From positions 17,814 to 81,813 of the IMG/VR virus record IMGVR_UViG_3300009131_000001: 64,000 bases of DNA; one strand, given 5' to 3'. Numbering within the stretch: position 1 is the first letter of the stretch; every line of letters starts with the position of its first letter. Under the pieces are notes generated by a model. It saw only the letters and a program-made list of their open reading frames with translations, ran no database searches and had not been told where the DNA came from. This DNA is from a virus (Duplodnaviria; Heunggongvirae; Uroviricota; Caudoviricetes). Both the position numbers and the translations under genes were made by a program. Positions 1 through 55,606 of the stretch are shown one piece after another.

Positions 1-2280
1 TACTACTTCACATCAAGTATACCTAAAAGAACTATAGATAGTAAGGATACGGGATACTACGACAAGAAGTATGAGGCTGTTGAAGGTAATGAAAGTAAAC
101 TTCAGATGTATGAGTTTATGGTTAGAACCAATAGTAAGCTCAATAAGTATCTAGGAGATGAAATTAGTGGAATAACTCCATATACAATACCAGCATTAGA
201 AAAAACCTCTCTTGAGCACTATATGACAGGTGGAATGAGTAATGCTGTTGGAGAAGCTTGGAATAAGTTTAGAAGTGAATATATTGAAAAAACTAATAAT
301 GAGTTTATTCCAGGTTCTGCTGTAACTGCTAATGATAGGGAAATACTTCAGTTAAGGGCTAAGTTTATTACAGATAATAGGGATAGGATATTAGATTACA
401 TTAAGTTAAAGCAAATTCAATATGAGAATGCTACAAATTCTCCTGCTACACCTGAAATGATTGCTGAATGGAAAAAGGATATAGTTTCACAAATAGCCAG
501 TGAACAATCATTTGATTTACCAACAATACTTAAACTATATGCTCTAGCAGCAACTAACTATAAGTACATGTCTAAGGTGGAGTTTGCCATGACTATTGCT
601 AATGAAATGAATAGACAGGCTAGACAAACTCAACTAAATTCTTATGACCAAGATAAAGTATCGGATTTTTCTAGAGTACTTAGGGATGCTAATGGTTCTG
701 TAGAATGGGTAGAAGATTTTATTAAACATCACTTCAATATAGGAACTAGACTTAAGGAAGGAGTATCTAAAACTAAAACTTATACTAAAAAGGAGCAAAG
801 ACAATTAGATGAGATTGATGCTGAAATTAAGACTCTTCAAGATAGACTTGCTGAAGGTAAGATAGATGAAGCAGAATTTAGTAAGAAGTACGCTGATTTA
901 AGTTCACAAAGAAATAAGATTGGGGGATATTTTAAGGCTTCAGGAGTTGGTGATAAAGTACTTAAATTCTATCAACTTCTAGGAATGGGATGGAATGGGT
1001 TTGCAGGATTTATCAATGTTGGAGTTGGACAGTTAGGTAACTATATTGAAGCGTCAGGAGGACAGAGATTTAATGTAGATGAGTTAAATAAAGCAGAATT
1101 ACTAGTAATGAATTCTATTGCTAAAGGAGTTACTATGGAAATTGTTAATACACCTCAAGCAAGAAAGATTAGAGCTTTAATGGAAAAGTATCAGGTGCTT
1201 AAAGAAACTGCTAATGACCTATATGATAATAGAAAATGGGGTAAATTCTTAGGTAGTAAAAAGGCTAAATACCTAATGCCATACACAATGCAATCCATGA
1301 CTGAGTATGTTAACCAAGCACCTGTAATGATTAGTATGCTTCTACATACTAAGGTTAAGGATGCTAGTGGCAATGAAATATCTCTATGGGATGCTTATGA
1401 CGAAACTGGCAACTTAAAAGATGGGGTAGAGTTTAATGATTCTGAAGAAAATAGGAAGGATTTCTTAACTCAAAAGAGTAAGATAGATTCAGCTATAGTA
1501 TGGATTCATGGTAACTATGACCCCGATAGAAAGGTAATGTATAAGAATAGAATACTTGGTAGAGCACTAATGATGTTTAGAGGATGGCTACCAATGGCTA
1601 TTACCAGTAGGTTTGGTAAGGAAATACCAGATTTTCAAGGTGGGATAATTAGAAAAGGTAGATGGATATCCTATAAAGATTACTATCAATCTGTTGGGGC
1701 AGTTAAAGGTTCTATAAATATTATGAAATCTCTACTAATGAAACTTGCTGGAATGCCTTTAGTAAACAAGATTACTAGGGTGGATAACAGTCAACTATTT
1801 AATGATTTAATATCAGATGAATTTACAGAGGTAGATGCTGCTAATATGAGAAGAAATATGCAAGCATTAATTATGTATGGTTCAATGATGATTCTTACAT
1901 TACTAGTTAAGGCTAATATGGATGATACAGATGATGAAGAAAAAGCTCTATGTTACTTCTGGATTAATCAAATTAATAGAATTCAGTCTGATATGAGCTT
2001 CTTTATTGACCCGACAGAGTTTGTTAAGCTGAATAAAAATGTAGTTCCTGTATTCCAACTAGTTACTAATTTTGAGAAGGCTATGGAATCCACAACTAAT
2101 GTTGTATTTGGAGCAGATGATGAGTATCAGCAAGGCCCATATAAAGGACAATCTAAGCAATTTATAGCTTGGGGTAGAGTTATTCCAGGTATGAATCAAC
2201 TACCCAGATTTAGTTCAATTACAGAACAACTTTACGATAAAAATACTATTACATCAATGGTAACTGATGATGGGGAATAA
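1..2280 (+). CDS. Virion-associated protein, partial at the 5' end (frame is open from nt 1). Gly-rich hydrophobic segments resemble a tape-measure or internal/ejection protein.
   Basis: The frame is open from window position 1 through 2280 with no stop, and the ORF track places the first Met at 106. It carries Gly-zipper/TM-like stretches (GMGWNGFAGFINVGVGQLG; ALIMYGSMMILTLLV) and helical regions. It is the last plus-strand gene before the convergent terminator. Confidence 0.45.
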   Translation, partial: YYFTSSIPKRTIDSKDTGYYDKKYEAVEGNESKLQMYEFMVRTNSKLNKYLGDEISGITPYTIPALEKTSLEHYMTGGMSNAVGEAWNKFRSEYIEKTNNEFIPGSAVTANDREILQLRAKFITDNRDRILDYIKLKQIQYENATNSPATPEMIAEWKKDIVSQIASEQSFDLPTILKLYALAATNYKYMSKVEFAMTIANEMNRQARQTQLNSYDQDKVSDFSRVLRDANGSVEWVEDFIKHHFNIGTRLKEGVSKTKTYTKKEQRQLDEIDAEIKTLQDRLAEGKIDEAEFSKKYADLSSQRNKIGGYFKASGVGDKVLKFYQLLGMGWNGFAGFINVGVGQLGNYIEASGGQRFNVDELNKAELLVMNSIAKGVTMEIVNTPQARKIRALMEKYQVLKETANDLYDNRKWGKFLGSKKAKYLMPYTMQSMTEYVNQAPVMISMLLHTKVKDASGNEISLWDAYDETGNLKDGVEFNDSEENRKDFLTQKSKIDSAIVWIHGNYDPDRKVMYKNRILGRALMMFRGWLPMAITSRFGKEIPDFQGGIIRKGRWISYKDYYQSVGAVKGSINIMKSLLMKLAGMPLVNKITRVDNSQLFNDLISDEFTEVDAANMRRNMQALIMYGSMMILTLLVKANMDDTDDEEKALCYFWINQINRIQSDMSFFIDPTEFVKLNKNVVPVFQLVTNFEKAMESTTNVVFGADDEYQQGPYKGQSKQFIAWGRVIPGMNQLPRFSSITEQLYDKNTITSMVTDDGE

Positions 2281-2324: not shown

Positions 2325-2360
2325 GGGAAGATATTAATATAGTATCTTCCCTTATTTATT
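2325..2360. terminator. Bidirectional rho-independent terminator between convergent gene blocks
   Basis: Perfect inverted repeat gggaagata/tatcttccc (9 bp) with a 9-nt loop. It is followed by ttatttatt on the plus strand and an A/T run on the minus strand. It lies between the stop at 2280 (+) and the stop at 2359 (-). Confidence 0.6.
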
Positions 2361-3252
2361 AACCACAACTAGAATACCCTCGTACACTACCAGTATTCCC
2401 GCAACTAGAATAATTTGGAACTGTAGGAGATGAATATAAAACATCCATTGGATTGTAAAATTCTACAGGTTTTCCAAAATTCCAATCTTCATATAATATA
2501 CCATCTGGTTGATATATTAATTCATATATAAAGTTTACATGATTAGATGGTTCATTAAGAGAGTACTTGAAATTTACAGGCATTCCCTTAATAAGTTTAC
2601 TATCTAACTTACATACTGGGCAACTATCTTTTCTAATGGACTTTACATTTGAAAATAAGTCATGTAATTTAAAATTATCCAAATTATCTGAATTATAGTT
2701 TTTTCTAAATGTCACAGAAGAAGCCCCAACTTTAAAAGCAAAATCTACATAATCATATAAATATTGTTTATCTCCAAAATTCTCTTCTACTACACAATTT
2801 ATATTAACTGGAATTCCTACATCATTTAATTTCTTACAAATAGTAGTAAGTTTTTTAGTACTTGGAACATCTTTAGTATTAAATATTTTATAGTTTTCTA
2901 TATCATCTATAGAATGTCTAGAAATATTAATATAACGAACCTTATTTTTCAGTATATCTATAACATTTGAAATATTACCCCCATTACTAGTAAGCACTAC
3001 TTTTGGGAAATTATATCTTGAAATAGTTTCTAAAGTAGGTGTAAGAAACTCACTATATGTAGGTTCTCCTCCTGATATTGAACATTGTGTAAATATATCA
3101 GGTAATATACTAAGATAATGGTTAAGTCTAGATAAGTAAGTAACATCTGTATAACTAGGCTTCCAAAAACAAAATCCACAATTAGCATTACATCCTCCAG
3201 GAAGAATTACTGTTAAATTTGGGGATTCTTGTATTGATTTTTTAAGTTTCAT
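2359..3252 (-). CDS. Radical SAM enzyme, viperin/MoaA-like
   Basis: CNANCGFCFW forms a CxxxCxxC motif with an aromatic residue, as in viperin CNYKCGFCFH. SISGGEP is the SAM glycine motif. VVLTSNGG and ISRHSIDDIEN parallel viperin VSIVSNGS and ISCDSFDEEVN. The C-terminus is Cys-rich (CPVC ... SSCG ... SSCG). Confidence 0.7.
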   Translation of the reverse strand: MKLKKSIQESPNLTVILPGGCNANCGFCFWKPSYTDVTYLSRLNHYLSILPDIFTQCSISGGEPTYSEFLTPTLETISRYNFPKVVLTSNGGNISNVIDILKNKVRYINISRHSIDDIENYKIFNTKDVPSTKKLTTICKKLNDVGIPVNINCVVEENFGDKQYLYDYVDFAFKVGASSVTFRKNYNSDNLDNFKLHDLFSNVKSIRKDSCPVCKLDSKLIKGMPVNFKYSLNEPSNHVNFIYELIYQPDGILYEDWNFGKPVEFYNPMDVLYSSPTVPNYSSCGNTGSVRGYSSCG

Positions 3253-3373: not shown

Positions 3374-3928
3374 TCAGGAATAATCAACAATATCTTTAAT
3401 AAATTTGAATGTTTCTTCTGGGGTAAGACATGCTTTTAAATAGTTAATTGATCTACATACTAAAACAGAGTTTTCTTTTGTATATCCTATTTTAGAATTT
3501 AGTCTATCTATACTCATGGAATATTGAGAATTACTATCTAAACTTAATGGTATATGTGAAAAATAACACAATCCATTTTGTCTATTAAATAATTCCTCAA
3601 TGTAATTTCCATCAAGTTCAAAACATAAATTCTTTTTCTTAGCATTTCCTTTCACCATTGCACATCTACGAAAGAATGGATTTAGCCCTTTTTGCAAAAT
3701 TCCATTTACAAACCATGGGTTTGTAGATTTCTTAATACTCCTTTGACTAGACGTTTTTCTGCATCCGCATGATTTTGTTTTACCAGAAGCTAATCTATAA
3801 ACCGGAACAATTGATGTGTTTCCACAATTACATTGACATAAAAAATAATTTTTATTATTTCTATTGTATGCAAAGTCTACTACTAGCAAATCTCCAAATG
3901 TTTTGTTTATTAAATCTATTTTTTTCAT
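3374..3928 (-). CDS. HNH homing endonuclease (probable start at internal MKKIDL)
   Basis: N-terminal FGDLLVVDF...CQCNCGN...SCGC zinc-finger-like module typical of phage HNH endonucleases. C-terminal SIDRLNSKIGYTKENSVLVCRSINYLK is an HNH motif. Confidence 0.6.
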   Translation of the reverse strand: MKKIDLINKTFGDLLVVDFAYNRNNKNYFLCQCNCGNTSIVPVYRLASGKTKSCGCRKTSSQRSIKKSTNPWFVNGILQKGLNPFFRRCAMVKGNAKKKNLCFELDGNYIEELFNRQNGLCYFSHIPLSLDSNSQYSMSIDRLNSKIGYTKENSVLVCRSINYLKACLTPEETFKFIKDIVDYS

Positions 3929-4024
3929 CTTACTATATTTATTTTTTACAAAAAAACACAATAAAATGCAAAAATCCAAATAATTATTAAATTATATATT
4001 AACTATTAAGGGAGCCACCTCTAA

Positions 4025-4862: not shown

Positions 4863-5471
4863 TTATTCAGTTTTATTTGTTATTAATTCAGACATAGGAA
4901 GAGTTTCTATCCATTTACAGAAATCTTGCCACTCTTGAAGCTTATGATGCTTGCGCTGTGAATAAATAGTTTTAAGTTGAAGATAGTTAGTTGATATACC
5001 CATCCATTTTAAATAACCAGATGGTAAATTCTCAATTATTCTTTTAAAACATATTTCTTTCTCGTCTAAAAATAACGGCGAATTATATGCCCTTATAGAA
5101 CCATTAATCAATTCTATAATACCATCATGTACATTGTTAGTAAAATCATCTTTAGTTAATTCTCTGCTAGTAATTTTATGCATCTTACTCTGAGAACTAA
5201 CAATGTCTACCCAGTGGTATCTTTGTAATTGTGGGCTAAAATATTCAGGATATTGTAGGTCAAATTGAACTATAATTCCTTTAAGGAAATTATTATGTCC
5301 TGAACCACTTGGTGTATTTGCTAGCTTTTTAGCTCTATTAGTATCCCCATTACATATAGATGATATGGCTTCCGACTTATCTAAATCTTTAGGTTCCCCA
5401 ACTTGCATTGGATAACCACTACGAACTAAGCTTTCTGCCAATCCGTAAATTTTTATATTTTTAATTTTCAT
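4863..5471 (-). CDS. Hypothetical protein with a faint ThyX-like resemblance (not supported)
   Basis: 202-aa ORF. GHNNF...IIVQF...QRYHW loosely recalls the ThyX N-terminal region but lacks the RHR motif. Confidence 0.45.
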   Translation of the reverse strand: MKIKNIKIYGLAESLVRSGYPMQVGEPKDLDKSEAISSICNGDTNRAKKLANTPSGSGHNNFLKGIIVQFDLQYPEYFSPQLQRYHWVDIVSSQSKMHKITSRELTKDDFTNNVHDGIIELINGSIRAYNSPLFLDEKEICFKRIIENLPSGYLKWMGISTNYLQLKTIYSQRKHHKLQEWQDFCKWIETLPMSELITNKTE

Positions 5472-6420
5472 GCAATAGTTTAAAAATTACGCCTTTATAT
5501 TTGTTATTGCCTTTATAGGACTTACCAGACTTTAATAGTTTTTCTATTGTTTTTCTATTAATTCCTGTATATTCTGATGTTTTTATTATATTATCAAACT
5601 GTAATATTTGATTATCATATTCAAAGGTAATTGGAACCCATTGTGAAGATTTTGTATTTTTTCTATTAAATTTCTCAATTCTGTATTTATCAAAAGGATC
5701 ATCTGGATATCTCCAAACAAAACCGTATGCAGATAGTACTTTTCCTTTAGAACATCTTACTATAGGTTGATATTTAAATCCAAGGTTCCTCTCTATTTCC
5801 ACAGAACTTGTAAAAGTTTTTATAAAATTTCCATCTATGTCATATTGATTTATTGGTTTAGATATCCTTAAAATATTTTTTTCTGACATTTTCTTTCCAG
5901 TATTGGCAATACTTATCTTAAGTTTTTGCTCTTCAGATAATTTCTTACCTAATCTAGATAAAGACATATTCTTTCGCCATTCAGGTGTTCTTGGTATATT
6001 ACGTAATGATTTTGAAAGTTTATCTATAGTCTCTTTTCTTCTTTTTACTCCTAAACATGATTTTTCTACTATTTTACAAATATTCATATCTGGATTAATG
6101 ATGTCTATATAATGCTGCTCAAATTTCATACATTCTTCTGCATCACAATAATGAATAACATATGCTTTAATATTATAGCATTTATTATAAATATTTTGCA
6201 TGAACACATTATAATGCTTATTTCTATGTAATAACCATTTATGTTGATTTATTCTTTCAGATAATCCTAATTTATTTGCTGTGCTACCAATATACAAATG
6301 ACTACCAATTTTTATTAAATATATACCAGTACTTCTATTTATTTTTTTAACTATTACTTTCCCATTACATTCCTCAATAATTTTCTCTAGTTCTTCTATA
6401 TTTTTTATATTGTTATTCAT
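5461..6420 (-). CDS. GIY-YIG homing endonuclease with NUMOD3/IENR1-like DNA-binding repeats
   Basis: GIYLIKIGSHLYIGST is a GIY-YIG core. NUMOD3-like EEQKLKISIANTGKK and a C-terminal IENR1-like YTGINRKTIEKLLKSGKSYKG are present. Confidence 0.75.
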   Translation of the reverse strand: MNNNIKNIEELEKIIEECNGKVIVKKINRSTGIYLIKIGSHLYIGSTANKLGLSERINQHKWLLHRNKHYNVFMQNIYNKCYNIKAYVIHYCDAEECMKFEQHYIDIINPDMNICKIVEKSCLGVKRRKETIDKLSKSLRNIPRTPEWRKNMSLSRLGKKLSEEQKLKISIANTGKKMSEKNILRISKPINQYDIDGNFIKTFTSSVEIERNLGFKYQPIVRCSKGKVLSAYGFVWRYPDDPFDKYRIEKFNRKNTKSSQWVPITFEYDNQILQFDNIIKTSEYTGINRKTIEKLLKSGKSYKGNNKYKGVIFKLLHEN

Positions 6421-8742: not shown

Positions 8743-8946
8743 CTATTTCTTTTTGTATACTTTCTCTAGCCATATTTTAAATCTCTTACACTTAAATTTA
8801 AATATTAATATACCCCCTAATAAAAGTACATTAATAAGATTGCAAGTATACGCAACATTAAGTCCATATAAAATATAGCATATAGTATCCGTAAGTAACC
8901 AAAATATATAAAAGGTTACTAAAACTAAATCTTTGTGTGTCACCAT
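8743..8946 (-). CDS. small membrane protein
   Basis: 67 aa with two hydrophobic segments (FYIFWLLTDTICYILYGL; LINVLLLGGILIF). Confidence 0.4.
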   Translation of the reverse strand: MVTHKDLVLVTFYIFWLLTDTICYILYGLNVAYTCNLINVLLLGGILIFKFKCKRFKIWLEKVYKKK

Positions 8947-9617
8947 GTTATTTCTTTTTTATTTATTGCACATAAAAATTCATTAATATTCTTAAACATC
9001 CAAAATAATACATCTGGATTATTAATTGGATTTTTAACTTTAATTTTTCTATGCATAATACTAATATGCCTTTCAAAACTCCAGTTATCTTCCCCAATCA
9101 TTACCCAACAAATATGAGGATAATTATTAATTTCCTCAATAGTCTTTATAATAAATTTATTCCAAAGATGTAAATGGTCTAGAGGTCTATTCTTTACATA
9201 GGTTAATTCCTTGTTTAGAAGAAATACTCCTTGTTTAGACCATCTACTTAAATCCATTAAATCTAATCCACTTAGTAGATTAGTGTCATTTTCAGGATAT
9301 TCACTATTAACCTCTTTAAAAATAATCTTTAGAATTGGAGATTCCTCAATTAATTTAGAACCTGATAAGCATAATCCATCATATTCTCCATTGTAGGTAT
9401 AGTGATTGGCTATAATAACTACTTTAATATCTTTAGGTTGAGTTAATCTATAACATCTAAAGTTATCCTCACTACCTTGTTCTGGATATATTATTTTACC
9501 AGACTTTCGCTCATTTGCTATAAAAGTATTGATCTTATAGAAATCATTAGAGGTAAGGAATGGCTCTAATTTAGAATACCATTCCTCACCAAATAGTTGA
9601 ATTAGTCTATCTTTCAC
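8940..9617 (-). CDS. Uracil-DNA glycosylase (family 1) homolog with substituted catalytic motifs
   Basis: ERKSGKIIYP matches Ung ERQSGVTIYP. KVVIIANHYTYNGEYDGLCLS aligns to [22 protein letters not shown] but replaces GQDPYH. RWSKQGVFLLNKELT matches SWARQGVLLLNTVLT. IKVKNPINNP sits in place of LKAPHPSPLS, so His is lost. Confidence 0.6.
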   Translation of the reverse strand: MKDRLIQLFGEEWYSKLEPFLTSNDFYKINTFIANERKSGKIIYPEQGSEDNFRCYRLTQPKDIKVVIIANHYTYNGEYDGLCLSGSKLIEESPILKIIFKEVNSEYPENDTNLLSGLDLMDLSRWSKQGVFLLNKELTYVKNRPLDHLHLWNKFIIKTIEEINNYPHICWVMIGEDNWSFERHISIMHRKIKVKNPINNPDVLFWMFKNINEFLCAINKKEITW

Positions 9618-9827: not shown

Positions 9828-10032
9828 ACTTTCCCATTTTAAACATAAAATTTAATGAATCTATTAATTCTAAAGCTTCTTTTCTATTTAAGTAGGCTAG
9901 ATTCCTTTTAGAGTTATCATCAGTTTCTATAATACTTAAGAAAATAGAATCTTCATTACTGTAGTCCTTTTGTAACTTTATTTGTTGCTCTGTATCACAA
10001 ATGCTTATTATAATATCTCTCTCATCAATCAT
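9820..10032 (-). CDS. hypothetical protein
   Basis: Co-oriented ORF. Confidence 0.4.
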   Translation of the reverse strand: MIDERDIIISICDTEQQIKLQKDYSNEDSIFLSIIETDDNSKRNLAYLNRKEALELIDSLNFMFKMGKYE

Positions 10033-10756
10033 AATCAGTTAATATTTCGTCATTAATATTAGGAATAGAATCTAACTCATTTCCTTTAGGTATTTTACAG
10101 CCTAAAAAGTTTTCAAGCTCTTCAATATAAAATGGACTTTGCATAACTACCTTATATTGAATAGAATCTACTCCATTAAAAATTCTTATTTTCTCCTTTA
10201 ATTTACTAGAAAATTTTGAATATTCCGCATTTTTAAATTTATTTATATCTTCCCAATGTTCTTTAGGAATAGTGAAAGCATAGACAACTAAATTTGGAGA
10301 TACATCTATTGTTTTGTAGTAATTAGGATATTTTGTAATTAATGATTCAAAATATCTATACTTTTCACCTCTTATAAATCTATATGTTAAATATAAAAAC
10401 TTCCCATTTAAAGACTTGTCATTATCAATTTCTAAGTAAGCATTGATAAAGTAGCTATTTAAAAATAACTTCTGCCTAGATATTCCTAGACATGGGAGTA
10501 AATATGAAGTAGTTCTATTTCTACAATAAGAAATTAATGTATAATTACCTTCAGAATTTTTATTAATCTTTCTTATCCTATACTTCACATTTACCCCATC
10601 AATCTGAATATTAATATAATCATCAGTATTCAGAGTAGTATCTCCACATTGTAAACTTGTTATGCTATTATCTTTATAATTTTCAACTATATTAAAAGGT
10701 GTGGAAATCTCTACTAATCTACTTGTCTTCTTATTTATAGTAAAGAATTCCTGCAT
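10025..10756 (-). CDS. hypothetical protein
   Basis: 243-aa ORF with overlap coupling. Confidence 0.5.
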   Translation of the reverse strand: MQEFFTINKKTSRLVEISTPFNIVENYKDNSITSLQCGDTTLNTDDYINIQIDGVNVKYRIRKINKNSEGNYTLISYCRNRTTSYLLPCLGISRQKLFLNSYFINAYLEIDNDKSLNGKFLYLTYRFIRGEKYRYFESLITKYPNYYKTIDVSPNLVVYAFTIPKEHWEDINKFKNAEYSKFSSKLKEKIRIFNGVDSIQYKVVMQSPFYIEELENFLGCKIPKGNELDSIPNINDEILTDYD

Positions 10757-10761
10757 ACAAA

Positions 10762-11778
10762 CTATCCAATTATATTTTTACCTAATTCATAGTATCTAAA
10801 CTTATGTTCCCAACTGTCATTCTGAATATGCCATTTTAATTCTATAATTAATTCAGGAATAGACGGAATCTTATTATATTTAGGATATAAAACATCCATA
10901 AAATAAGTAGTTTTTTCTGCTTCACCATCTAAAATATCCCTATCTAATACCCAATCAACTAAATCATCACATAACTCATAAACCTCTGGTTTATTTGCTC
11001 CTGTTGTATCAATAGTTACATTGATATATTTATACTCATAATCAGCATATTCAGAGTAATTCTTCTTAAACAATTCCCCATAAAAAGGAGTTTGTAGATA
11101 GTAATGATACTTCCAGAAATTAGATATAAAATTACCCGAATAAGTCTTTACATCTACAATATAGACAATCTTTTCATTCTCATCTACATCTACAATATCA
11201 GGCTTACCTTTACACTCTATTCCCCATAATTCAGCAAATAGTTCTAATTGCTTAAATTGTTTGGTAAAATTTCTAGAATCTAAGTAATATTCAGTAGTTG
11301 GTTCATAGTGTGCAGATGTAATTAGGTTTTCAGCAAATTCTAATGTGTCAGCAGATATTACAGATTTACCTTCCGCTTGAGCAGATTGCATTGTTTCAAC
11401 ATAATCAGAACATCCTTCATAGAATTTCTTAATTACAGTTTCATCTTTTAACCTAGAATCATAATTTACATTATCTCTAGCTTGTAGTATGACTATATTA
11501 CTTGGACTTGTTAGTAATGGATCTGAAGCCAATCTAACATATTCATCTGCTAATGCTAGCATCCCTCCACTAGGTTTATTCCTAACTACTGCAAACTTAT
11601 TATAAACTGGTTCATCACTAGTTAGTAGATGGTCTACAATATTTCCTAATTCAAATCCACTTGAGGATTTATCTTCACCATCTATCATAGCCTTAGCCTC
11701 TTTAGGGGAGGCTATTAGGCTAGATAGTAGCGAATAATTTACTGCTTTACTTTCTTTGTAATTTAATATTTCTCCCAT
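10762..11778 (-). CDS. PD-(D/E)xK (RecB/Cas4-like) nuclease, probable recombination exonuclease
   Basis: GKPDIVDVDENEKIVYIVDVKTYSG gives a D...D/ExK core. A QTPFYGELF Q..Y motif follows. Confidence 0.55.
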   Translation of the reverse strand: MGEILNYKESKAVNYSLLSSLIASPKEAKAMIDGEDKSSSGFELGNIVDHLLTSDEPVYNKFAVVRNKPSGGMLALADEYVRLASDPLLTSPSNIVILQARDNVNYDSRLKDETVIKKFYEGCSDYVETMQSAQAEGKSVISADTLEFAENLITSAHYEPTTEYYLDSRNFTKQFKQLELFAELWGIECKGKPDIVDVDENEKIVYIVDVKTYSGNFISNFWKYHYYLQTPFYGELFKKNYSEYADYEYKYINVTIDTTGANKPEVYELCDDLVDWVLDRDILDGEAEKTTYFMDVLYPKYNKIPSIPELIIELKWHIQNDSWEHKFRYYELGKNIIG

Positions 11779-12332
11779 GGTTGTATTGCTGTATGTAATC
11801 CTAATGTACCCCCCTTATAAAATGTTAGAGGGTTTGATATATAATTATGCATTGCCAATCTTTTTAGAAATTTAGTGCCTATCAAAGAACTTATAGAATT
11901 TCTAATAGTTTTCTCAGTACAATTTAAAAATTTAGCACATTCTTGAATTTGTAAGGAACTAAAAATTATAATTTTAGATTTAGGTTCTTGAAATTCTACC
12001 ATATACATAAATACTTGTAAATCTCTAAGGCTGCTGAATTCAGTCAACCATTCCAATCCTTCAGTTGAATGTACCATAATAAAAGTTTCTTTTTTATCTT
12101 TTTCCCAACTTCTATTATGAATTTCCGAATGACATTTATAACATAGAGTTATTAACAAACTATTATCATATTCCCAAGCATTTCTGCCCTTTATATATTT
12201 AATATGATGTATATTTAATTTATCAATACTTCCACACCTTGTACATTTATAGGAATCTCTTTCTAAAATAGATTGCCTTTTACTTTTCCATTCTTTAGTC
12301 AATAATTGTTTTCTATATTCTTCTTTATTCAT
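11763..12332 (-). CDS. HNH endonuclease
   Basis: CTRCGSIDKLNIHHIKYI...NSLLITLCYKCHSEIH is a classic HNH C..C...HH...N...C..CH motif. Confidence 0.7.
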   Translation of the reverse strand: MNKEEYRKQLLTKEWKSKRQSILERDSYKCTRCGSIDKLNIHHIKYIKGRNAWEYDNSLLITLCYKCHSEIHNRSWEKDKKETFIMVHSTEGLEWLTEFSSLRDLQVFMYMVEFQEPKSKIIIFSSLQIQECAKFLNCTEKTIRNSISSLIGTKFLKRLAMHNYISNPLTFYKGGTLGLHTAIQPWEKY

Positions 12333-15162: not shown

Positions 15163-15579
15163 TTATTCTACAATTAGATTATATTCTTTCTTAATACTAT
15201 CAATAATCTCTTGTAAATTTTCACACTCGATTTGTGCAATAATAATTTTATTTTTAATACTTTCTAACGATGGGTATTTTAAATTGCATCCCTCTTCTAC
15301 TTCTTTGGTATATTGCTTATAACATTGACTGATAAAAGAGGGAATTCTTTCACTTCTATCAAGCCATCCTGACATATTAAATTTATAAATATCTTTAAAG
15401 CTATTTATTAAGGAATCTATCTTTATAAATTCTTTATATTTAGTGGTTTTTTTAAATTCTTTTTCCCAAACTTCTTTACATTTTGTGCCTGCTTTAATAG
15501 TGTCTACATTACTGTTTACAATTTCACTTTGAATTTTACCCGCAATAGCATTAATTTCTTGATTATTTAACTTTTTCAT
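15163..15579 (-). CDS. hypothetical protein
   Basis: 138-aa ORF. Confidence 0.45.
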   Translation of the reverse strand: MKKLNNQEINAIAGKIQSEIVNSNVDTIKAGTKCKEVWEKEFKKTTKYKEFIKIDSLINSFKDIYKFNMSGWLDRSERIPSFISQCYKQYTKEVEEGCNLKYPSLESIKNKIIIAQIECENLQEIIDSIKKEYNLIVE

Positions 15580-16579
15580 TTAATTGTTCTATTAATTGTT
15601 CGTAAAACTGCTTAATCCCATACTTACAAGAGTAGTCAAATGGGTCTTTTTCATTAATAGTTGGATTATACATATACTCAAGCCCATATAGTTCACTAAA
15701 ATGTTTAGCATTAACTATTCCTGGGTTATCAGAATCATAGTATAATATAATTCTTTTCCACCTACTTCTCATTTTATCTAGCCATTGAGATGGGCATATT
15801 GAAGTTTCTGTGTTCGGCGCAACGCCATGTATAATTTTATCTTTAACCCAACCATTAATATTAATTCTCCAAAAGACTCCTGCATCCTTTTTACTGCTAG
15901 TTATAAATAAAATATCCCCATACTTAGGCATTACATCTATAAGTTGAACCGTAGTATCATCTACATTAGATACCCATTTTAACTTAGATTTTGGTTGATA
16001 TATTTTCCTTCTAAATACTCCATTATGAAAGTAGTAATCATAAGAATAGGCTAATTTACTAGCCTTAATACATCTTCTACCTTTATCATTATCTATCCAA
16101 AAATACTCTATTGGAATAGTTTTAGCCTTAACTAGCATTTCCTTACTCCATATCTCAGGATTCCAGAATTCTAAATCATACTTACTAAAATCTCTAGCCT
16201 TTATATCCAGTATGGTAGGAGTTTTATCAACTCTTTCAGACTTAATTCTCTCCTTTAGGGTATACTGATATATTTTAGATTTAGAAAATTCTATGGAATC
16301 ATTTGCTACAATTTCTATAGCATCCTGTAATGAAATAGAAAACTTCTTTTGAAGATAATCTAGTATATCAAGGCTTCCTTCATTCTCCCCAAAATCTTTG
16401 TATTTAAGCCCTGTATTTGTAGGATTTATTACACATGAAGGATTACTATCACTTCTAAACTCTGATTTAAAAAAAGCCCCAACCTGATTAAAGTTGGGGC
16501 AATATTTTCTAAATAAATCTTCATGGGATACAGAGTCCAGAACTTCTTGTAAGTTGTAGATTCTTCTTCCCTTAATCAT
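15563..16579 (-). CDS. DNA primase (TOPRIM domain)
   Basis: YYDSDNPG DxD TOPRIM motif; ILFITSSKKDAG; N-terminal Cys/His-containing region. Confidence 0.55.
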   Translation of the reverse strand: MIKGRRIYNLQEVLDSVSHEDLFRKYCPNFNQVGAFFKSEFRSDSNPSCVINPTNTGLKYKDFGENEGSLDILDYLQKKFSISLQDAIEIVANDSIEFSKSKIYQYTLKERIKSERVDKTPTILDIKARDFSKYDLEFWNPEIWSKEMLVKAKTIPIEYFWIDNDKGRRCIKASKLAYSYDYYFHNGVFRRKIYQPKSKLKWVSNVDDTTVQLIDVMPKYGDILFITSSKKDAGVFWRININGWVKDKIIHGVAPNTETSICPSQWLDKMRSRWKRIILYYDSDNPGIVNAKHFSELYGLEYMYNPTINEKDPFDYSCKYGIKQFYEQLIEQLNEKVK

Positions 16580-24077: not shown

Positions 24078-25385
24078 TTAAATAGGTATTTCATTAACGT
24101 TAGTAATTTCAGTAATCCATTCAGAATCTACATTTTTTAAACAAGATTCTAACCAAGTTTCTGACTGGGTATTTCTAGGAACAATCCACATACAAATACC
24201 TAAGTCATTAGTATTCAATCTATTAAGTCTTCCTGCCTTTTGACTACTACTGGTATCACTTCCATTAAAACTCTCCATAATAGCATATTTAGCATTTTTA
24301 AGGTTAAGTCCTAATGTAAGCATATCACAACTAGATAATTCTCTAATAACTCCTTCATTGAATTGCTCTAGAAGTAATTTATTAGAATCTGCTTCTTTCT
24401 TAGAATGTATAGAATATCTAGATAGTTTTGATGCTTGGTTAGTTAAAGCAGAGAATATTAAAACTTTATTATCAGTTCCTTGTAGTATTCTATCCTTAAA
24501 TCTATTGCACCAATACTTACTAGATTCTAAATTCCATAAGAATTCTTTTCTATATCTAATAGAATTAAAGAATGCTCTACCAGCATCAGAGTACTGTTTA
24601 TCTAACTTATTACCATTCTCATCAATACCTTTCATCCATTGAATAGAAATTTTAAAAAAATCATCAGCACCTAAATATGCCATAGTTTTCTTAGCCTTAT
24701 CATACCTCTCAGATAAGTATTGATATTGAGATAATTCTCCTTTAGTCCAAGATTTAGTTTTAGTTCCAACTTTTATTTTAAAATCATCAGTTAAATCATA
24801 TCTAAACACATAGTTCATAGTATGATTAATTAAACCATCTTTAGCACTATTATAATATTCAAATACAATTGGCAGTTTAGTACTATAGAATTGAGATTTA
24901 AACTCATCAGATTTATTAGGAGTACCTGTTAATCCGAGGATTTTCTTTCTTAGCCATAAGGCATTCTCAATTAAAGCAGAATACTCAGAAGATATTACAA
25001 GATGCCCCTCATCGATAATTATGAGATCATACTCATTAATTCTAGACTTACTCCATTTATAACAAGTCTGGATATTAAATAAGTCAATGCTAATTAAGGT
25101 ATCATCATATTCCCAAATAGAATCTAATACTTCCTCTATTTTTGTAAATCCCCACTTATGTAACTCATTACTCCAAGACTCTTTAAGGTTAGTTCTAGGA
25201 GAAGTTATAAGAACTTTTCTAGGAGTAAATCTTTTTATAGCCTTTATTCCTATCAAACTTTTACCTGAACCTGGTGTAGCTACAACAACTCCACAACAAC
25301 CTTTATTTATCCAAGTATTTAGTGCTTTGCTTTGAATTTCATCTTTAGTCATTAATCTAGTAAATTTGTTTCTACTACACTCCAA
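24078..25385 (-). CDS. SF2 DEAD/DEAH-box-type helicase
   Basis: Motif I ATPGSGKS, motif II IIIDEGH, motif III LTGTP, motif VI QKAGRLNR. Confidence 0.7.
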   Translation of the reverse strand: MECSRNKFTRLMTKDEIQSKALNTWINKGCCGVVVATPGSGKSLIGIKAIKRFTPRKVLITSPRTNLKESWSNELHKWGFTKIEEVLDSIWEYDDTLISIDLFNIQTCYKWSKSRINEYDLIIIDEGHLVISSEYSALIENALWLRKKILGLTGTPNKSDEFKSQFYSTKLPIVFEYYNSAKDGLINHTMNYVFRYDLTDDFKIKVGTKTKSWTKGELSQYQYLSERYDKAKKTMAYLGADDFFKISIQWMKGIDENGNKLDKQYSDAGRAFFNSIRYRKEFLWNLESSKYWCNRFKDRILQGTDNKVLIFSALTNQASKLSRYSIHSKKEADSNKLLLEQFNEGVIRELSSCDMLTLGLNLKNAKYAIMESFNGSDTSSSQKAGRLNRLNTNDLGICMWIVPRNTQSETWLESCLKNVDSEWITEITNVNEIPI

Positions 25386-26873: not shown

Positions 26874-27131
26874 TTAAAGAGATTTCTCATGTTTCATATC
26901 TAAAATATAACTTCTCTTATCTTGGAGAGTTATTAATATAGATTCTAATTCTTCTTTAATCAAAGGTTCTAATTCACAATTCCATAATTGTTTATTAATA
27001 TCCTGTATATATTCATTTACTTTAAATAGATTGTATCTACTTAAATCTTGTTCATCTATGTAGTATTTAGCCATTAGTGAGTCCAATAAGGTGTTATACA
27101 AGGTTCTGCTTTTAAAGGAATGATAGGACAA
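26874..27131 (-). CDS. hypothetical protein
   Basis: Co-oriented ORF overlapping the polymerase gene's upstream end. Confidence 0.35.
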   Translation of the reverse strand: MSYHSFKSRTLYNTLLDSLMAKYYIDEQDLSRYNLFKVNEYIQDINKQLWNCELEPLIKEELESILITLQDKRSYILDMKHEKSL

Positions 27132-29029
27132 AATGGTTTAGCCCCAGTTTCCATACAATCCTTAAGTATTAATGCCCATTCTTCAGATATATTTACAGGT
27201 ACTTCTAGTAAGGCCTCATCATAAATTAAATCTACAATTTTTACTTTCATAAAATTTCCAGTAGATACTATTTTCCTAAATAAAAGAATCATAGAATATT
27301 TAAGTACTTCAGCCCCAGTTCCTTGAATAGGAAAGTTTAGTGAACTTCTATACATATCCCCCTTAATAGCGTGATATTTCTTCTGTTCCTCTTTAGATAA
27401 ACTATTATATCCCTCTCTATTTATAGTTTCTTGTAATTCCTTTAATCTATTAATATCTGGATACCAATATTTTCTTCTACATATATTATTAAAAGTTATA
27501 TATCCATTTTTAAAAGATGTTTCTGATATATATTTAAAATAATTAGCAATTCCTGGAAATGCGGACATATAAGAATTATAAATTCTCTCTCCTTCATCTA
27601 TAGGAATATTTAAATTATTAGCAATAGTAAATCCATTACCTCCATAAGAGATAGCAAATCTAGCAGATTTAGCATTTTGTCTTAAATCAGGTCGTAACTT
27701 CTTTACCTCTTCTTCGAATATATTCTGTAATTCTTTAGGAAAACACATTTTTGCTACAAAACTATGCCCATCTCTTTTTCTAGTAGTATCTAAATAAAAT
27801 TCAGTTAATACTTTGTCTTGACATTTATTTGCAAAGATGATGTCTTCTTGACCCGAGTAGTCGCAGTCTATCAATATGTTACCTCGCTCTGGTACAAAAC
27901 ATTTCCTAGTATCTTCATCTCTTGGAATATTGAGCATATTAATATATTCTGTATGATTTGCTTTATCCTTACCTCCAGAATACATCCTACCAGTATTTAG
28001 TAATTGTCCAAAATTAGTATGAATTCTACCTGTTACTGGATTTATATGCTTATAGAAGTTTTCTCCATAAGTACTTAATTCCTTTTGAAGTTCTTTATAT
28101 TTGATATATATATTTATTATAGGATATTCATTTGCAAGTTTTCTTATATGTTTTGCCGAAACAGATTCCTTTTCCTCCCCCCTTTCAACAATACTTGTAT
28201 CTATTCCTAAAATATTAAATAAATCAATAACTTGTTTGGAAGAATTCCAATTAATATTTACTCGTATTTCAGTAGAAAACAAATCTAACTGTCGGTCAAT
28301 AAACTTAGTAATATTTAGTCTTAATATTTCATTATTAAGTTCTTTTTCAATTTCTAGAAGTTTTGCTTTGGATTTATTTATTCTTTGTTGCCAAAGATTT
28401 CTATCTAATTTAATTCCACAAAACTCCAAATAAGTGATTACAGGTACAAATAAATTATCTAGTTCAATGGCTTTATAAACATCCCATTCATAAGCCAATT
28501 TCAATTGTTTTCTTTTAATTTCATGCAAAAAAGCTACATCTTTTGCACCATATATTATTACTCTATCAGAAAGTCCTTCTTTATGAATATTTCCTCTAAT
28601 AGTTTTATCTAAAGTTTCACCACAATATCTTTTAACTAAGGCATCAAGAGCCTTTCCATGTAATTTATCATCATTATTATAAAGTATTTGTTCTGCTATA
28701 TAAGTATCATAAACTTTCATAGGAATGATACCTTTAATATATAACCATCTTATATCAAACTTTAGGTGTTGCCCTATAATTAATTTATTTTCTATAAGTT
28801 CTTTATAATATTTATCTATAGGAATCTCTTGAGTATTTATTACAAACTGATTAGTTTCATCTCCTAACTGAAGTGATAAAGTCTGTTTAGTATAAACATC
28901 AAATCCAGTAGTTTCAAAATCTAATCCAATTTCATCTAATTTATTTAAATACTCTAAACTATCTTCTACAGAACACCATTTAATTTTATCACTATCAAAT
29001 AATCTTTTACTTCCTACATAATAGTACAT
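27074..29029 (-). CDS. DNA polymerase, family A (Pol I/T7 gp5-like) with 3'-5' exonuclease domain
   Basis: Exo I GLDFETTG; motif A DCDYSGQEDII; motif B RQNAKSARFAISYGG; motif C IYDEALLEV. Confidence 0.85.
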   Translation of the reverse strand: MYYYVGSKRLFDSDKIKWCSVEDSLEYLNKLDEIGLDFETTGFDVYTKQTLSLQLGDETNQFVINTQEIPIDKYYKELIENKLIIGQHLKFDIRWLYIKGIIPMKVYDTYIAEQILYNNDDKLHGKALDALVKRYCGETLDKTIRGNIHKEGLSDRVIIYGAKDVAFLHEIKRKQLKLAYEWDVYKAIELDNLFVPVITYLEFCGIKLDRNLWQQRINKSKAKLLEIEKELNNEILRLNITKFIDRQLDLFSTEIRVNINWNSSKQVIDLFNILGIDTSIVERGEEKESVSAKHIRKLANEYPIINIYIKYKELQKELSTYGENFYKHINPVTGRIHTNFGQLLNTGRMYSGGKDKANHTEYINMLNIPRDEDTRKCFVPERGNILIDCDYSGQEDIIFANKCQDKVLTEFYLDTTRKRDGHSFVAKMCFPKELQNIFEEEVKKLRPDLRQNAKSARFAISYGGNGFTIANNLNIPIDEGERIYNSYMSAFPGIANYFKYISETSFKNGYITFNNICRRKYWYPDINRLKELQETINREGYNSLSKEEQKKYHAIKGDMYRSSLNFPIQGTGAEVLKYSMILLFRKIVSTGNFMKVKIVDLIYDEALLEVPVNISEEWALILKDCMETGAKPFCPIIPLKAEPCITPYWTH

Positions 29030-43606: not shown

Positions 43607-43897
43607 ATGAATTTTGGACAAGCAATTGAAGCCTTAAAAGAAGGTAAATTAGTAGCAAGAGAAGGTTGGAATGGTAAGGGGTTATTTGTAATGAAACAAA
43701 TTCCTGCCGAAATTGGATTAGAGATTATCCCTAAAATGCAGTCTGTACAAGAAAGTGCTAAACAAATTTTAGTATCTAGAGGTACAACTCTAAAATATGA
43801 GAATCAAATGCTTATTATAAAACCAAATGGTACGGCAGATTCATGGGTTCCAAGCTCTTCTGATGTATTTGCAGAAGATTGGATTGTTGTAGAATAA
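43607..43897 (+). CDS. DUF2829-family protein (Tad2-like candidate anti-Thoeris sponge)
   Basis: N-terminus MNFGQAIEALKEGKLVAREGWNGKGLFVM matches the DUF2829 signature (M.FG.A.EALK.GKKV.R.GWNGKG) recalled from memory. The protein is ~96 aa, the typical family size. Confidence 0.5.
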   Translation: MNFGQAIEALKEGKLVAREGWNGKGLFVMKQIPAEIGLEIIPKMQSVQESAKQILVSRGTTLKYENQMLIIKPNGTADSWVPSSSDVFAEDWIVVE

Positions 43898-44004: not shown

Positions 44005-45000
44005 ATGGGTAGAGTAAGAAAAATAGGAGTCTATAAAATTACTTGTAATATTACTGGAATGTCTTATATAGGACAGAGTAATGATGTTTATAGAAGATTG
44101 AGATTTTATAAATCTCTGAGATGTAGGCAACAACCAAGAATTTACAGATCTCTATCTAAGTATGGCATAGATAATCACATATTTACAATCATTTGGGAAT
44201 CTACCTATAGTAGTAAACACATAATATTACAAAAGGACACTCTTAATATTTTGGAAAAATTTTACATATTTAAATATAATACCCTATCTCCCAATGGGTT
44301 AAATTTGTATTCTGGAGGAGATTCTTATACAGCATCTGAAGAAACTAGACTTAAATTAAGTAAATCTAAAAGTGGTATAAATCATCCAATGTATGGAAAG
44401 ATTGGAAAATTAAATCCAGCATCAAAGGAGGTTGTGCAATTAAGTAAAGATGGAGAGTTTATAAAAGATTGGGAATCTGCAACTGTTGCAGAAAAGACTT
44501 TAAATATAGCTAGAGATTTAGTATCAGCATGTTGTAGAGAAGATAGATATAGTACTAATGGGTATATATGGATGTGGAAAGCAGATTTTGATACTTACGG
44601 GCCAAAAATATACAAATTACCAAAAAGAAAAGATAGTCTATCAAAGAAGACTTATCAATATGATTTACAAGGTAAATATTTAAGAGAGTGGAATTCTACT
44701 ATGGATATAGAAAGAGAACTTAATATTGCAAATACATCTATAAGTAATGTATGCACAAATCAAAAAGGACAGGCTGGAGGATTTCAATGGAGATACTTTA
44801 TAAATGAAAATGGTATAAATGAATATATTACTAAGGGATTTCATGTAGTAGTTACAGATATAGATACAGGACTAATTCAAGAGTTTGAAAGTCTAGCTAA
44901 AATAAGTAAGACCTTTAAAATAAAGTGGTATATAATTAAAGAATGTTGCGAAGGTATTAGGAAATATTATAAAAATTATAAATTTAGTTATAAATATTAA
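44005..45000 (+). CDS. GIY-YIG homing endonuclease with NUMOD-type DNA-binding repeats
   Basis: GVYKITCNITGMSYIGQS is a GIY-YIG core. NUMOD3-like TRLKLSKSKSGINHPMYGK. Repeated IENR1/NUMOD1-like segments (KEVVQLSKDGEFIKDWESATVAEKTLNIA; LREWNSTMDIERELNIANTSISNVC). Confidence 0.7.
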   Translation: MGRVRKIGVYKITCNITGMSYIGQSNDVYRRLRFYKSLRCRQQPRIYRSLSKYGIDNHIFTIIWESTYSSKHIILQKDTLNILEKFYIFKYNTLSPNGLNLYSGGDSYTASEETRLKLSKSKSGINHPMYGKIGKLNPASKEVVQLSKDGEFIKDWESATVAEKTLNIARDLVSACCREDRYSTNGYIWMWKADFDTYGPKIYKLPKRKDSLSKKTYQYDLQGKYLREWNSTMDIERELNIANTSISNVCTNQKGQAGGFQWRYFINENGINEYITKGFHVVVTDIDTGLIQEFESLAKISKTFKIKWYIIKECCEGIRKYYKNYKFSYKY

Positions 45001-45015
45001 ATGTAGATTTTAGTT

Positions 45016-45534
45016 ATGAATAATAGGATACCAAAAGATTTTTTTATTACTAAAGGCTCTGGATTATCTGATATAACCATGCATGCTGGAGCATTTCATT
45101 TTGCATTATGGGATGCTGGAATTGATGGTTATAATTTTGTAAAATATTCATCAGTTTTACATAAAAAAGCAGAATGTGTAAATATTGAAAGTATTAAAAG
45201 TATGCCAGAACACGGTAGTGAGATGATGTGTATTCAAGCTATTGCCGAAGGAAAGGGTGGAGAAACTATTTCAGCAGGTATTATTTATGGATATCTTTAT
45301 GATCTAGAGGGCAATTGTTATGGAGGGATAGTTTGTGAAGAGTCTAATACGTATGGTGAGTCACAATTAACTTACAAATTAATAAATATAATAGATGATA
45401 TGTATTGTAAAACTTATAAAACTAAAGGATTGATACTAAGAGATGTAAAAACAATTACTGAAGAATTGTCAATTCCTAATGATGTTAGATTTGGATGTTG
45501 TTTAGTTAGTCTGTGTTTTATAAATTATTTGTAG
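45016..45534 (+). CDS. pdaD: pyruvoyl-dependent arginine decarboxylase (PdaD family)
   Basis: MNNRIPKDFFITKGSG...FHFALWDAGIDGYNFVKYSSVL parallels the PdaD N-terminus (...PK.FF.T.G.G...FE.AL..AGI...NLV.VSSI.P) including the Ser-Ser self-cleavage site. GGETISAGIIYGY matches GETISAAISVA. Confidence 0.65.
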   Translation: MNNRIPKDFFITKGSGLSDITMHAGAFHFALWDAGIDGYNFVKYSSVLHKKAECVNIESIKSMPEHGSEMMCIQAIAEGKGGETISAGIIYGYLYDLEGNCYGGIVCEESNTYGESQLTYKLINIIDDMYCKTYKTKGLILRDVKTITEELSIPNDVRFGCCLVSLCFINYL

Positions 45535-55108: not shown

Positions 55109-55606
55109 ATGAAAAGAATATCAGAAGAATTAGAGAAGAGAATTAACATCCATATAGAACTTGAGGAAAACTCCTCAAGGCTCTATAGGGCTATGGGAGA
55201 ATGGTTTGAGTACAATGGTTGGTTTAATGCTGCAAAACTTTGGAAGAAGTATGCAGATGAAGAAATGGCACATTGCAGTAAGTTTTATCAGTATCTACAG
55301 GATAGGGATGTTTTACCTGTAACTCCAATGGTTAAAGAACAACCTAATGAGTATGAGTCTATGGAGAAGATTATAGAGGCATCTTATAAGCATGAAATTG
55401 AGGTAAGTAAGGAATTATCCAAAACTGCAACAATGGCTTTAAAGGAAGGTGATTTAACAGTATTTGGATTTATGCATTGGTTTATTCAAGAGCAAATTGA
55501 AGAAGAATCTAAGATGATGGCATTCTTGGATAGAATTGATATGCTTAAACAGACTAATACTAGTCTATTCTTTATGGAAGAGGCTTTTGAAGAAGCTTTA
55601 GGATAA
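55109..55606 (+). CDS. ftn: ferritin-like protein (bacterial non-haem ferritin Ftn type)
   Basis: Ferroxidase-centre pattern E..Y...EE.AH...Y; YKHE is identical to the E. coli FtnA segment YKHEQ; DLTVFGFMHWFIQEQIEEE matches DYPTFNFLQWYVSEQHEEE. Confidence 0.75.
   Translation: MKRISEELEKRINIHIELEENSSRLYRAMGEWFEYNGWFNAAKLWKKYADEEMAHCSKFYQYLQDRDVLPVTPMVKEQPNEYESMEKIIEASYKHEIEVSKELSKTATMALKEGDLTVFGFMHWFIQEQIEEESKMMAFLDRIDMLKQTNTSLFFMEEAFEEALG

Follow-up and report, generated by a model that had tools for sequence, protein, structure and literature searches.

A family-1 uracil-DNA glycosylase homolog of a crAss-like phage that appears to have lost its catalytic residues and may serve the replication module as a repurposed subunit

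Positions 17,814 to 81,813 of the IMG/VR virus record IMGVR_UViG_3300009131_000001 (Caudoviricetes), a stretch of 64,000 nucleotides that we call the window, carry a replication block on the minus strand. A primase, a superfamily 2 (SF2) helicase, a family-A DNA polymerase (PolA) and a PD-(D/E)XK exonuclease are encoded there on the same strand as a homolog of uracil-DNA glycosylase (UDG), the subject of this report, which agrees with the place that a preliminary description of the gene, made from the sequence, had given it. HNH, RepL and AAA_24 ATPase genes belong to the same block. By descent and fold, the UDG-like protein is a member of the family-1 UDG lineage, and its homology is far beyond chance. 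In every alignment tried, both catalytic residues are missing from it, while its gene has remained under purifying selection. Crass_capsid (56914-58413) and CrAss_Ring (Pfam) are markers of crAss-like phages in the window, and the major capsid protein is 29-30% identical, over its full length, to the capsid proteins of crAss001-type phages. The G+C content of the window is about 28-30%. No nucleotide-level relative was found by megablast among 50,697 phage records.

The GTG start of the UDG-like gene abuts the TAG of a small upstream open reading frame (ORF), and at the other end its TGA overlaps with the ATG of the ORF that follows; the gene is therefore tightly coupled to both neighbors. The N-terminus MK[DN]RLI is common to the orthologs. 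By phmmer against PDB sequences, the protein is matched by Coxiella Ung (3tr7) at E = 6.8e-19, by human UNG at E = 1e-12 and by E. coli Ung at E = 1e-11, and the Ung equivalog models of NCBIfam cover its residues 10-225. AlphaFold2, given 38 homologs, produced a model with a mean pLDDT (predicted local distance difference test) of 90.6 and a pTM (predicted template modeling score) of 0.90. The best 50 Foldseek matches of this model in the PDB are all family-1 UNGs (TM 0.77-0.85, the best 0.83-0.85), and its best viral matches are likewise UDGs. No MUG/TDG chain is present among the 44 PDB sequence matches or in the top 50 Foldseek matches. The preliminary description had recognized a full-length family-1 UDG homolog, and phmmer, NCBIfam, AlphaFold2 and Foldseek all bear this out; the blocks that it quoted are present as well (NERKSGKIIYP at residues 35-45, KVVII at 65-69, ANHYTY at 70-75, GLCLS at 81-85, VFLLN at 131-135 and NPINNP at 196-201). 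The protein misses the curated Ung cut-offs of NCBIfam (NF003592, 94.8 against 162 bits; TIGR00628, 86.5 against 185.75), and its PF03167 score of 14.9 bits is below the Pfam gathering score of 24.3.

For the comparison of residues, the window protein and 11 full-length close relatives with 54-94% identity were taken as one clade of 12 members. Two MAFFT alignments were used: a small one of 19 sequences, in which the clade is joined by canonical Ung matches and by the UNGs of E. coli and human, and a large one of 190 sequences that includes the 150 best matches of an exhaustive HMMER search. In the window protein, GQDPYH is replaced by ANHYTY (motif A) and HPSPLS by NPINNP (motif B), as first described, and both motifs are substituted in all 12 members. 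One residue is missing after beta-1, which leaves motif A with an ambiguous register: Asp64 of E. coli Ung (human D145) stands opposite Asn71 in the small alignment and opposite His72 in the large one and in the strand register of the model. In neither register does the window protein have a carboxylate at the water-activating position. Depending on the placement of the one-residue gap, the clade has N/S/D or H/Q/P here. The Asn71 column is Asn in 10 of the 12 members, Ser in P0010 and Asp in P0012, which is the only member with an Asp near the motif A position; the His72 column is Gln or Pro in two members.

His187 of E. coli Ung (human H268), which acts on the leaving group, faces Asn196 according to HMMER, the 190-sequence alignment and the strand register of the model, in which beta-4 spans residues 190-194 and is followed by K-N-P. 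It faces Val194 in the 19-sequence alignment. The clade accordingly shows N/D or V/I/T at this position, by alignment, and His in 0 of 12 members; in the HMMER and large-alignment register, the residue is Asn or Asp throughout the clade and is always followed by Pro. NPINNP opens the shortened and variable former Leu-intercalation loop. A check for Asp and His equivalents kept elsewhere, with both MAFFT alignments, HMMER and the strand register, reveals neither, and as far as sequence allows both catalytic residues are lost. Asp80, His148, His189 and Lys191 are invariant in the clade.

The losses extend to the residues that hold DNA. Among 15 classical functional positions examined, two or three are retained in the clade. 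Phe77 of E. coli Ung, which stacks on uracil, is replaced by Leu, or by Tyr or Trp in two members. All four serines that pinch the phosphates are replaced: Ser88 by Ile (I95 in the window protein), Ser166 by Glu176, which is invariant in the clade, Ser189 by N/D196 or I198, and Ser192 by N/R199 or P. Arg276 of human UNG, which reads the minor groove, has become D/N or is deleted. The Leu191 wedge position is variable, and Arg195 of E. coli Ung corresponds to D/N202 or a gap. In real Ungs the Leu-intercalation loop is nearly invariant. In the clade it is the most variable region of the protein, with a mean column entropy of 1.22 versus 0.72 overall and with indels.

The charge of the loops also differs in this region. 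The net charge of five DNA-face loops is -4.8 +/- 1.1 in the clade versus -0.35 +/- 2.7 in 130 canonical relatives (Mann-Whitney p ~1e-6, not phylogeny-corrected, with some canonical proteins reaching the same acidity), and the clade has gained D80, E91, D119, D122 and E176 as invariant acidic residues. The isoelectric point of the whole protein was dropped as a sign of lost DNA binding; it is about 6.1-8.2 in the clade versus mostly about 9 in the matches, and overlaps that of genuine Ungs. Within the pocket, the uracil-reading Asn of beta-2 is kept as Asn135 (E. coli N123, human N204) in 10 of 12 members, with Ser in P0009 and Thr in P0012, and the thymine-excluding Tyr73 is kept in 10-11 of 12. 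Canonical, Ung-style DNA binding has probably been lost as well as the catalytic residues. The expectation of the preliminary description, a protein that binds DNA without excising uracil, is thus not supported, given the replaced equivalents of Ser88, Ser166, Ser189, Ser192 and Arg276, the Leu loop as the least conserved part, and the acidic DNA-face loops.

Table 1. Features of the UDG-like gene and of the replication block, in window coordinates
Feature	Position	Strand	Basis or remarks
UDG-fold coding sequence	8940..9617	minus	225 aa, GTG start; catalytic and DNA-pinch residues stripped
Motif A remnant A70-N71-H72-Y73-T74-Y75, replaces GQDPYH	9393..9410	minus	read from sequence
Motif B remnant N196-P-I-N-N-P201, replaces HPSPLS, no His	9015..9032	minus	read from sequence
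S85-G-S-K-L-I-E-E92, clade-invariant, replaces Pro-rich DNA-pinch loop; Ile95 (= Ser88) just downstream	9342..9365	minus	per-column table
G175-E-D-N-W179, replaces Gly-Ser phosphate-binding loop, Glu176 invariant	9081..9095	minus	per-column table
N110-x-x-N-L-L-S-G-L-D-L-M-D-L-S-R-W126, almost invariant, acidic/hydrophobic	9240..9290	minus	mean entropy 0.43 vs 0.72 whole protein
Beta-2 strand V131-F-L-L-N135, uracil-reading Asn kept	9213..9227	minus	per-column alignment
Conserved 243-aa protein, possible partner	10025..10756	minus	synteny in window, L001, L009, L010
PD-(D/E)XK exonuclease (RecE/exonuclease VIII-like)	10762..11778	minus	phrog_412 E = 5e-20; PF12705/PF12684
Primase	15563..16579	minus	
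SF2 helicase	24078..25385	minus	
Family-A DNA polymerase (PolA), 651 aa, 3'-5' exo domain plus pol domain, no fused UDG domain	27074..29029	minus	PF01612 and PF00476

A comparison of the UDG-like gene with its ortholog at locus L009 (88% amino-acid identity) gave a ratio of nonsynonymous to synonymous substitution rates (dN/dS) of 0.18 at dS 0.40, which indicates that the gene is functional. The values of the flanking genes are similar, 0.22 for the exonuclease and 0.10 for the gene of a 243-aa protein. The ORF is intact in at least 12 diverged genomes, and 76 alignment columns are invariant in the clade, including those of new motifs (Table 1). The 17-residue segment 110-126 holds a clade-specific insertion of five residues relative to Ung, which phage phi14:2 and canonical UDGs lack. 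The invariant insertion, NLLSGLDLMDLSRW, is acidic and hydrophobic, and the pLDDT of the model falls below 50 only at residues 114-118. Because this loop is invariant in sequence yet modeled with low confidence, the segment may become ordered upon binding of a partner, and it is a candidate partner-binding or lid loop. Conservation in the clade has moved to new loops near the old active-site face and has not been lost.

The origin of the gene can be followed among phages of Bacteroidota. The UDG-like protein matches PHROG 12143 at E = 5.1e-26 (residues 13-215 against positions 10-217 of a 227-position profile), and the UDGs of Fpv1, cr108_1, a bajarodcaudo virus and Cellulophaga phi14:2 all match this profile strongly. 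PHROG 12143, which is labeled "unknown function", is on these matches the UDG family of Bacteroidota phages. The order of exonuclease, ~243-aa protein, small ORFs and UDG-like gene is kept throughout the clade as well as in P0040 (L010), its nearest outgroup, and the canonical UDG gene of cr108_1 is likewise close to a PD-(D/E)XK exonuclease gene. The shared PHROG and the syntenic slot indicate that the UDG-like gene is the positional descendant of an ordinary crAss-type UDG. The UDGs of cr108_1, Fpv1 and the bajarodcaudo virus keep GQDPY and HP, and for this reason they are presumably active. P0040 is in an intermediate state, with xTEPY and HP kept. The phi14:2 protein gp053, annotated "uracil-DNA glycosylase", has GKEPY, GE and EDPI, and the window clade has ANHY, GE and [N/D]P[I/V]. 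It is plausible that these motif states form an erosion series within one syntenic ortholog.

The exhaustive HMMER search yielded 5,153 homologs at E <= 1e-3, among which the window clade forms one 50%-identity cluster at 434 bits; the next match is at 145 bits. Residues in all three columns compared were present in 172 non-clade homologs. Asp and His are both kept in 130 of these and both lost in 18; His is lost with Asp kept in three, and Asp is lost with His kept in 21. Loss of Asp is thus associated with loss of His (Fisher p = 5e-11, not corrected for phylogeny). The replacement of Ser166 by Glu occurs in 11 of 42 altered homologs versus 2 of 130 canonical ones (p = 3e-6, likewise uncorrected), and the pocket Asn is almost always retained. 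In a crude, weak neighbor-joining tree with the motif columns masked, the altered forms are scattered, and the nearest neighbors of the clade are also altered. Such distributions suggest that UDG homologs shifted to alternative functional states repeatedly or long ago. In IMG/VR viral contigs, none of 59 back-translated pattern matches was confirmed as a clade member.

Taken as a whole, these observations lead us to favor, tentatively, the reading that the UDG-like protein is a UDG-fold protein repurposed as a non-catalytic subunit of the replication/recombination module. Uracil excision has likely been given up, an inactivity that we infer from the residues lost. A UDG that is found in the replication module of many crAss-like/Flavobacteriia phages would have become a pseudo-glycosylase in the lineage of the window, with its fold intact. 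It would then act as a structural or adaptor subunit, either in the PolA replisome, where PolA is the candidate partner, or in a module with the exonuclease and the 243-aa protein. The partner would be bound via the newly conserved loops (SGSKLIEE, GEDNW and the insertion), in place of the Ung-type grip on DNA. A pyrimidine-like ligand could still enter the pocket, in which Asn135 and Tyr73 are retained.

Viral precedents exist for such a role. Vaccinia D4 is essential for replication, whereas its catalytic site is not, as a D68N/H181L virus replicates (PMC2630940), and D4 binds A20 to form the processivity factor of the polymerase (PMC3946371). The analogy to D4, drawn already in the preliminary description, is legitimate: D4 is likewise virus-encoded and of family-1-like UDG fold, and its essential role in the replication machinery does without glycosylase chemistry (PMC2630940; PMC3946371). 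D4 differs, however, in keeping its catalytic residues and its DNA binding, on which processivity depends, while the window protein appears to have naturally lost both sets; in addition, no A20-like bridging partner was identified for the window protein, and the polymerase is of family A, not B. In N4-like phages, PolA carries a family-4 UDG domain in which the catalytic residues are replaced or deleted and which was proposed to be a processivity or structural module (PMC10201439). In SP15-like PolAs, cryo-electron microscopy located the UDG domain on the template in front of the fork, and phage UDGs encoded in trans were predicted to dock likewise on family-A polymerases (bioRxiv 10.1101/2025.03.26.645540). 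The N4-like domain, which is associated with PolA, resembles the window protein as a phage UDG-fold module with lost catalytic residues. It is of family 4, N-terminal and fused in cis, whereas the window protein is of family 1 and its gene stands apart, about 17 kb from polA. Viral replisomes are already known to contain UDG modules that work without catalysis or are catalytically dead, and the window protein does not open a new category. What is new is a family-1-derived, stand-alone form in a crAss-like phage, with a rebuilt conserved surface; literature searches turned up nothing specific on inactive family-1 UDGs that stand alone in phages, or on DNA modification in crAss phages.

Several points weigh against this account. 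A protein-protein contact between the UDG-like protein and any replication protein is inferred only. D4 and the SP15-like PolA UDG modules contact DNA by a positive surface, whereas the DNA-face loops of the window protein are acidic, so that these precedents transfer only in part; because the positive, DNA-binding surface appears to be lost, the adaptor reading is favored only tentatively. Most members keep the Asn and Tyr of the pocket, and the motif states are similar to those of active family-2 and family-3 enzymes (PMC4787834), with which residual or new catalysis would fit equally well. The invariant Asp80 might in principle reach the pocket. Finally, the conserved 243-aa neighbor yields no functional clue.

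Among the alternatives, a retargeted, slow glycosylase is the main one, although we consider it unlikely. Such an enzyme would flip a base into its pocket and cleave it by MUG/TDG- or SMUG-like chemistry, with an Asn-positioned water and no His. Its substrate would not be plain uracil but might be, for instance, a pyrimidine of host or phage DNA that is damaged or modified. Families 2 (MUG/TDG) and 3 (SMUG) are active with Asn in motif A (GINPG/GMNPG), and family 2 lacks the motif B His; Asn71 and Asn196-Pro of the window protein mimic these features (PMC4787834). Because an Asn in motif A is normal in active enzymes of these families, the substitution of both motifs does not by itself amount to inactivity. 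The prevalence of Asn71, Asn135 and Tyr73 in the clade, the hydrophobic or aromatic residue at the Phe77 position, the constant N/D-Pro of motif B and the purifying selection on the gene are all consistent with this idea, as is the wide family-1-like radiation, whose covarying motif changes suggest alternative functional states and not decay. UDG-fold glycosylases of new specificity are known from phage-host conflict (ref. 17 within bioRxiv 10.1101/2025.03.26.645540). On the other hand, the putative catalytic Asn is not invariant, being Ser in P0010 and Asp in P0012, and P0009 and P0012 no longer have the pocket Asn. The serines of the backbone pinch are all lost, Glu176 would repel phosphate, and a wedge loop that varies in length and sequence is hard to square with base flipping. 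Furthermore, the ANHY context differs from GINPG/GMNPG, no specific sequence or structural affinity to families 2 and 3 is seen, and no base-modification pathway was recognized in the window.

The survey of homologs also allows a broader proposal, to which we give a limited chance. The clade may be the extreme member of an unrecognized class of virus-encoded, family-1-derived proteins that includes phi14:2 gp053 and dozens of metagenomic lineages. In this class, the loss of Asp, the loss of His and the change of Ser to Glu in the Gly-Ser loop would co-evolve, and the DNA face would be rebuilt as a new active or binding site. With this site, the proteins may carry out new chemistry on a modified nucleotide or on a substrate that is not DNA or, alternatively, act as dedicated protein-binding adaptors of the replisome. 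The members would then be mislabeled as uracil-DNA glycosylases.

The model put forward in the preliminary description, a non-cutting reader of uracil or modified bases that stays on DNA and shields it from host Ung or senses the base at the fork, is quite unlikely in our judgment. It has in its favor that the combined Asp-to-Asn and His-to-Asn state resembles the engineered inactive UNG used as a sensor of uracil-containing DNA (PMC4756853), that pocket Asn135 and Tyr73 are kept, and that the gene lies within the replication block. The replacement of the DNA-contacting serines and Arg, the acidic DNA-face loops and the unconstrained Leu loop are difficult to reconcile with a reader on DNA, and stoichiometric shielding of a genome of ~100 kb is implausible. 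There is also no sign of deoxyuridine (dU) or 5-hydroxymethyluracil (hmU) metabolism in the annotated 64 kb. Protection of uracil-containing or modified DNA and a decoy function had both been considered at first, and nothing in the annotated parts of the window points to either or to uracil-containing DNA: no gene was detected there for a dUTPase, for a thymidylate-synthase-like or Ugi-like protein, or for a known base modification.

A decoy or counter-defense protein, in which an Ung-shaped body with an acidic face titrates a host factor that recognizes Ung or DNA (a host protein, a partner of the tail of single-stranded DNA-binding protein, or a defense sensor), is very unlikely and a purely inferential idea. 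The remodeled acidic face and the invariant, structurally unconfident acidic/hydrophobic loop, which is typical of a docking motif, would suit it, and other counter-defense-like genes occur in such phages, for example the Tad2-like gene at 43607-43897. The UDG-like gene, however, is in a conserved replication/recombination slot and not among the variable early or accessory genes, and no PADLOC defense model is similar to its product. It is highly improbable that the protein is still an ordinary UDG that takes its catalytic residues from elsewhere, such as the invariant Asp80, or His72 or His189. Asp80, His148, His189 and Lys191 are indeed invariant, and Asp80 and the His residues may be close to the pocket. 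Against this stand the two or three retained functional positions of 15, scores far under the curated Ung cut-offs, Gln or Pro in place of His72 in two members, and the association of Asp and His losses among the 172 non-clade homologs, as expected when activity is abandoned. A decaying, functionless relic, to which the loss of all hallmark residues might point, is effectively excluded by the dN/dS of 0.18, along with the intact ORFs in diverged genomes, the invariant columns with their new motifs, the confidently predicted fold and the translational coupling to both neighbors.

Comparison with the known proteins places the window protein as follows. It shares with family-1 Ung (E. coli, human and Coxiella 3tr7) 27-35% identity over the full length, the fold at TM 0.83-0.85, the Asn of the beta-2 "LLN", the thymine-excluding Tyr and the core hydrophobic framework. 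It differs in the absence of the catalytic Asp and His, in Phe77 being Leu, in the replacement of the four phosphate-binding serines and the minor-groove Arg, in the shortened and variable Leu loop, in the five-residue insertion and in its sub-threshold family scores. With the UDGs of PHROG 12143 (crAss001/cr108_1, Fpv1, bajarodcaudo virus and phi14:2 gp053), it shares the PHROG, the slot by the PD-(D/E)XK exonuclease and the crAss-like background. The window clade is the most derived of them, at about 30% identity, and phi14:2 gp053 is a second altered form. Neither the 64-kb window, which leaves about 34 kb of the genome uncovered, nor any of the 10 loci fetched for comparison encodes a second UDG homolog.

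The gene of the 243-aa protein always sits between the exonuclease gene and the UDG-like gene. In its product, the N-terminal domain is all-beta and the C-terminal tail is disordered and acidic (…ELDSIPNINDEILTDYD), and searches for families, folds and PADLOC models found no match. Other genes near the UDG-like gene vary among the loci. A radical-SAM protein is encoded in the window at 2359-3252 (-) (PF04055 E = 5e-10). Its core resembles prokaryotic viperins (pVip E = 7.8e-16, PADLOC) at 41 versus 180 bits, far under the viperin cut-off, and it is unclassifiable. A different radical-SAM gene (L001 9119-9958), with 23% identity to that of the window, is directly upstream of the L001 UDG-like gene. 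As the window copy is 6 kb off, the identity is 23% and neither protein is classifiable, a conserved functional link was rejected. Within a few kb of the UDG or UDG-like gene, several related phages, the bajarodcaudo virus among them, have a conserved trio of genes (L001 4084-6962, L009 3764-6583, L010 4513-7422 and L007 85-2141), which encode proteins of ~400 aa and ~330 aa and a ThiF/E1-like adenylyltransferase. In the window, its place is taken by a 347-aa gene, RepL and an HNH endonuclease; the linkage is not required. In phi14:2 (L005 2497-6666) and cr108_1 (L008 1-3582), the UDG gene comes directly after genes for a glutamine amidotransferase (GATase) and for a hypothetical protein of ~500 aa that is homologous between the two phages (27% identity), and phi14:2 additionally has ATP-grasp and gamma-glutamyl cyclotransferase genes. 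The GATase and ~500-aa genes were rejected as a cause of the altered UDG, since they occur with both altered and canonical UDGs.

Elsewhere in the window, at least four HNH/NUMOD homing-endonuclease-like genes are found (3374-3979, 5461-6420, 11763-12332 and 44005-45000), of which that at 11763-12332 is inserted between RepL and the exonuclease and is absent from L001 and L009. A pyruvoyl-dependent arginine decarboxylase gene at 45016-45534 (+) (PF01862 E = 8e-24) adjoins a NUMOD homing-endonuclease gene and points to polyamine or agmatine metabolism. The Tad2-like small protein (anti-Thoeris family, PF11195) is encoded on the plus strand in the early block. A 1129-aa ORF at 49123-52512 (+) has intein-splicing and LAGLIDADG domains, which indicates that an intein interrupts a large gene of the structural or packaging kind. 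A gene for a ferritin-like protein is situated at 55109-55606 (+), amid structural genes just upstream of the capsid gene. The 724-aa ORF at 106-2280 (+) corresponds to a 1233-aa gene in the matching Logan contig L002 that runs past the left edge of the window; the left end of the window may differ from, or be permuted relative to, the L002 assembly.

UDG genes have been taken as a conserved "repair" marker of the replication modules of crAss-like phages and have been annotated by homology alone. In part of the crAss-type UDG lineage, including the cultured Cellulophaga phi14:2, uracil excision has likely been given up, and Ung-style DNA binding probably with it, while selection is maintained (dN/dS was computed for the window gene and its L009 ortholog). 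The label "uracil-DNA glycosylase" should not be applied to the window protein, and "UDG-fold protein, catalytic residues not conserved" should be used instead, likewise for phi14:2 gp053. The 225-aa protein, together with a cultured relative, offers a compact testable system. If it is a non-catalytic subunit of the replisome or recombination machinery, it would be a natural phage counterpart of the catalysis-independent role of D4, and also a trans-encoded counterpart of the dead UDG domain in N4-like polymerases. Should its substrate be a new one, the UDG superfamily would be extended. Either reading calls for caution in inferring uracil repair from the label "UDG" in these phages.

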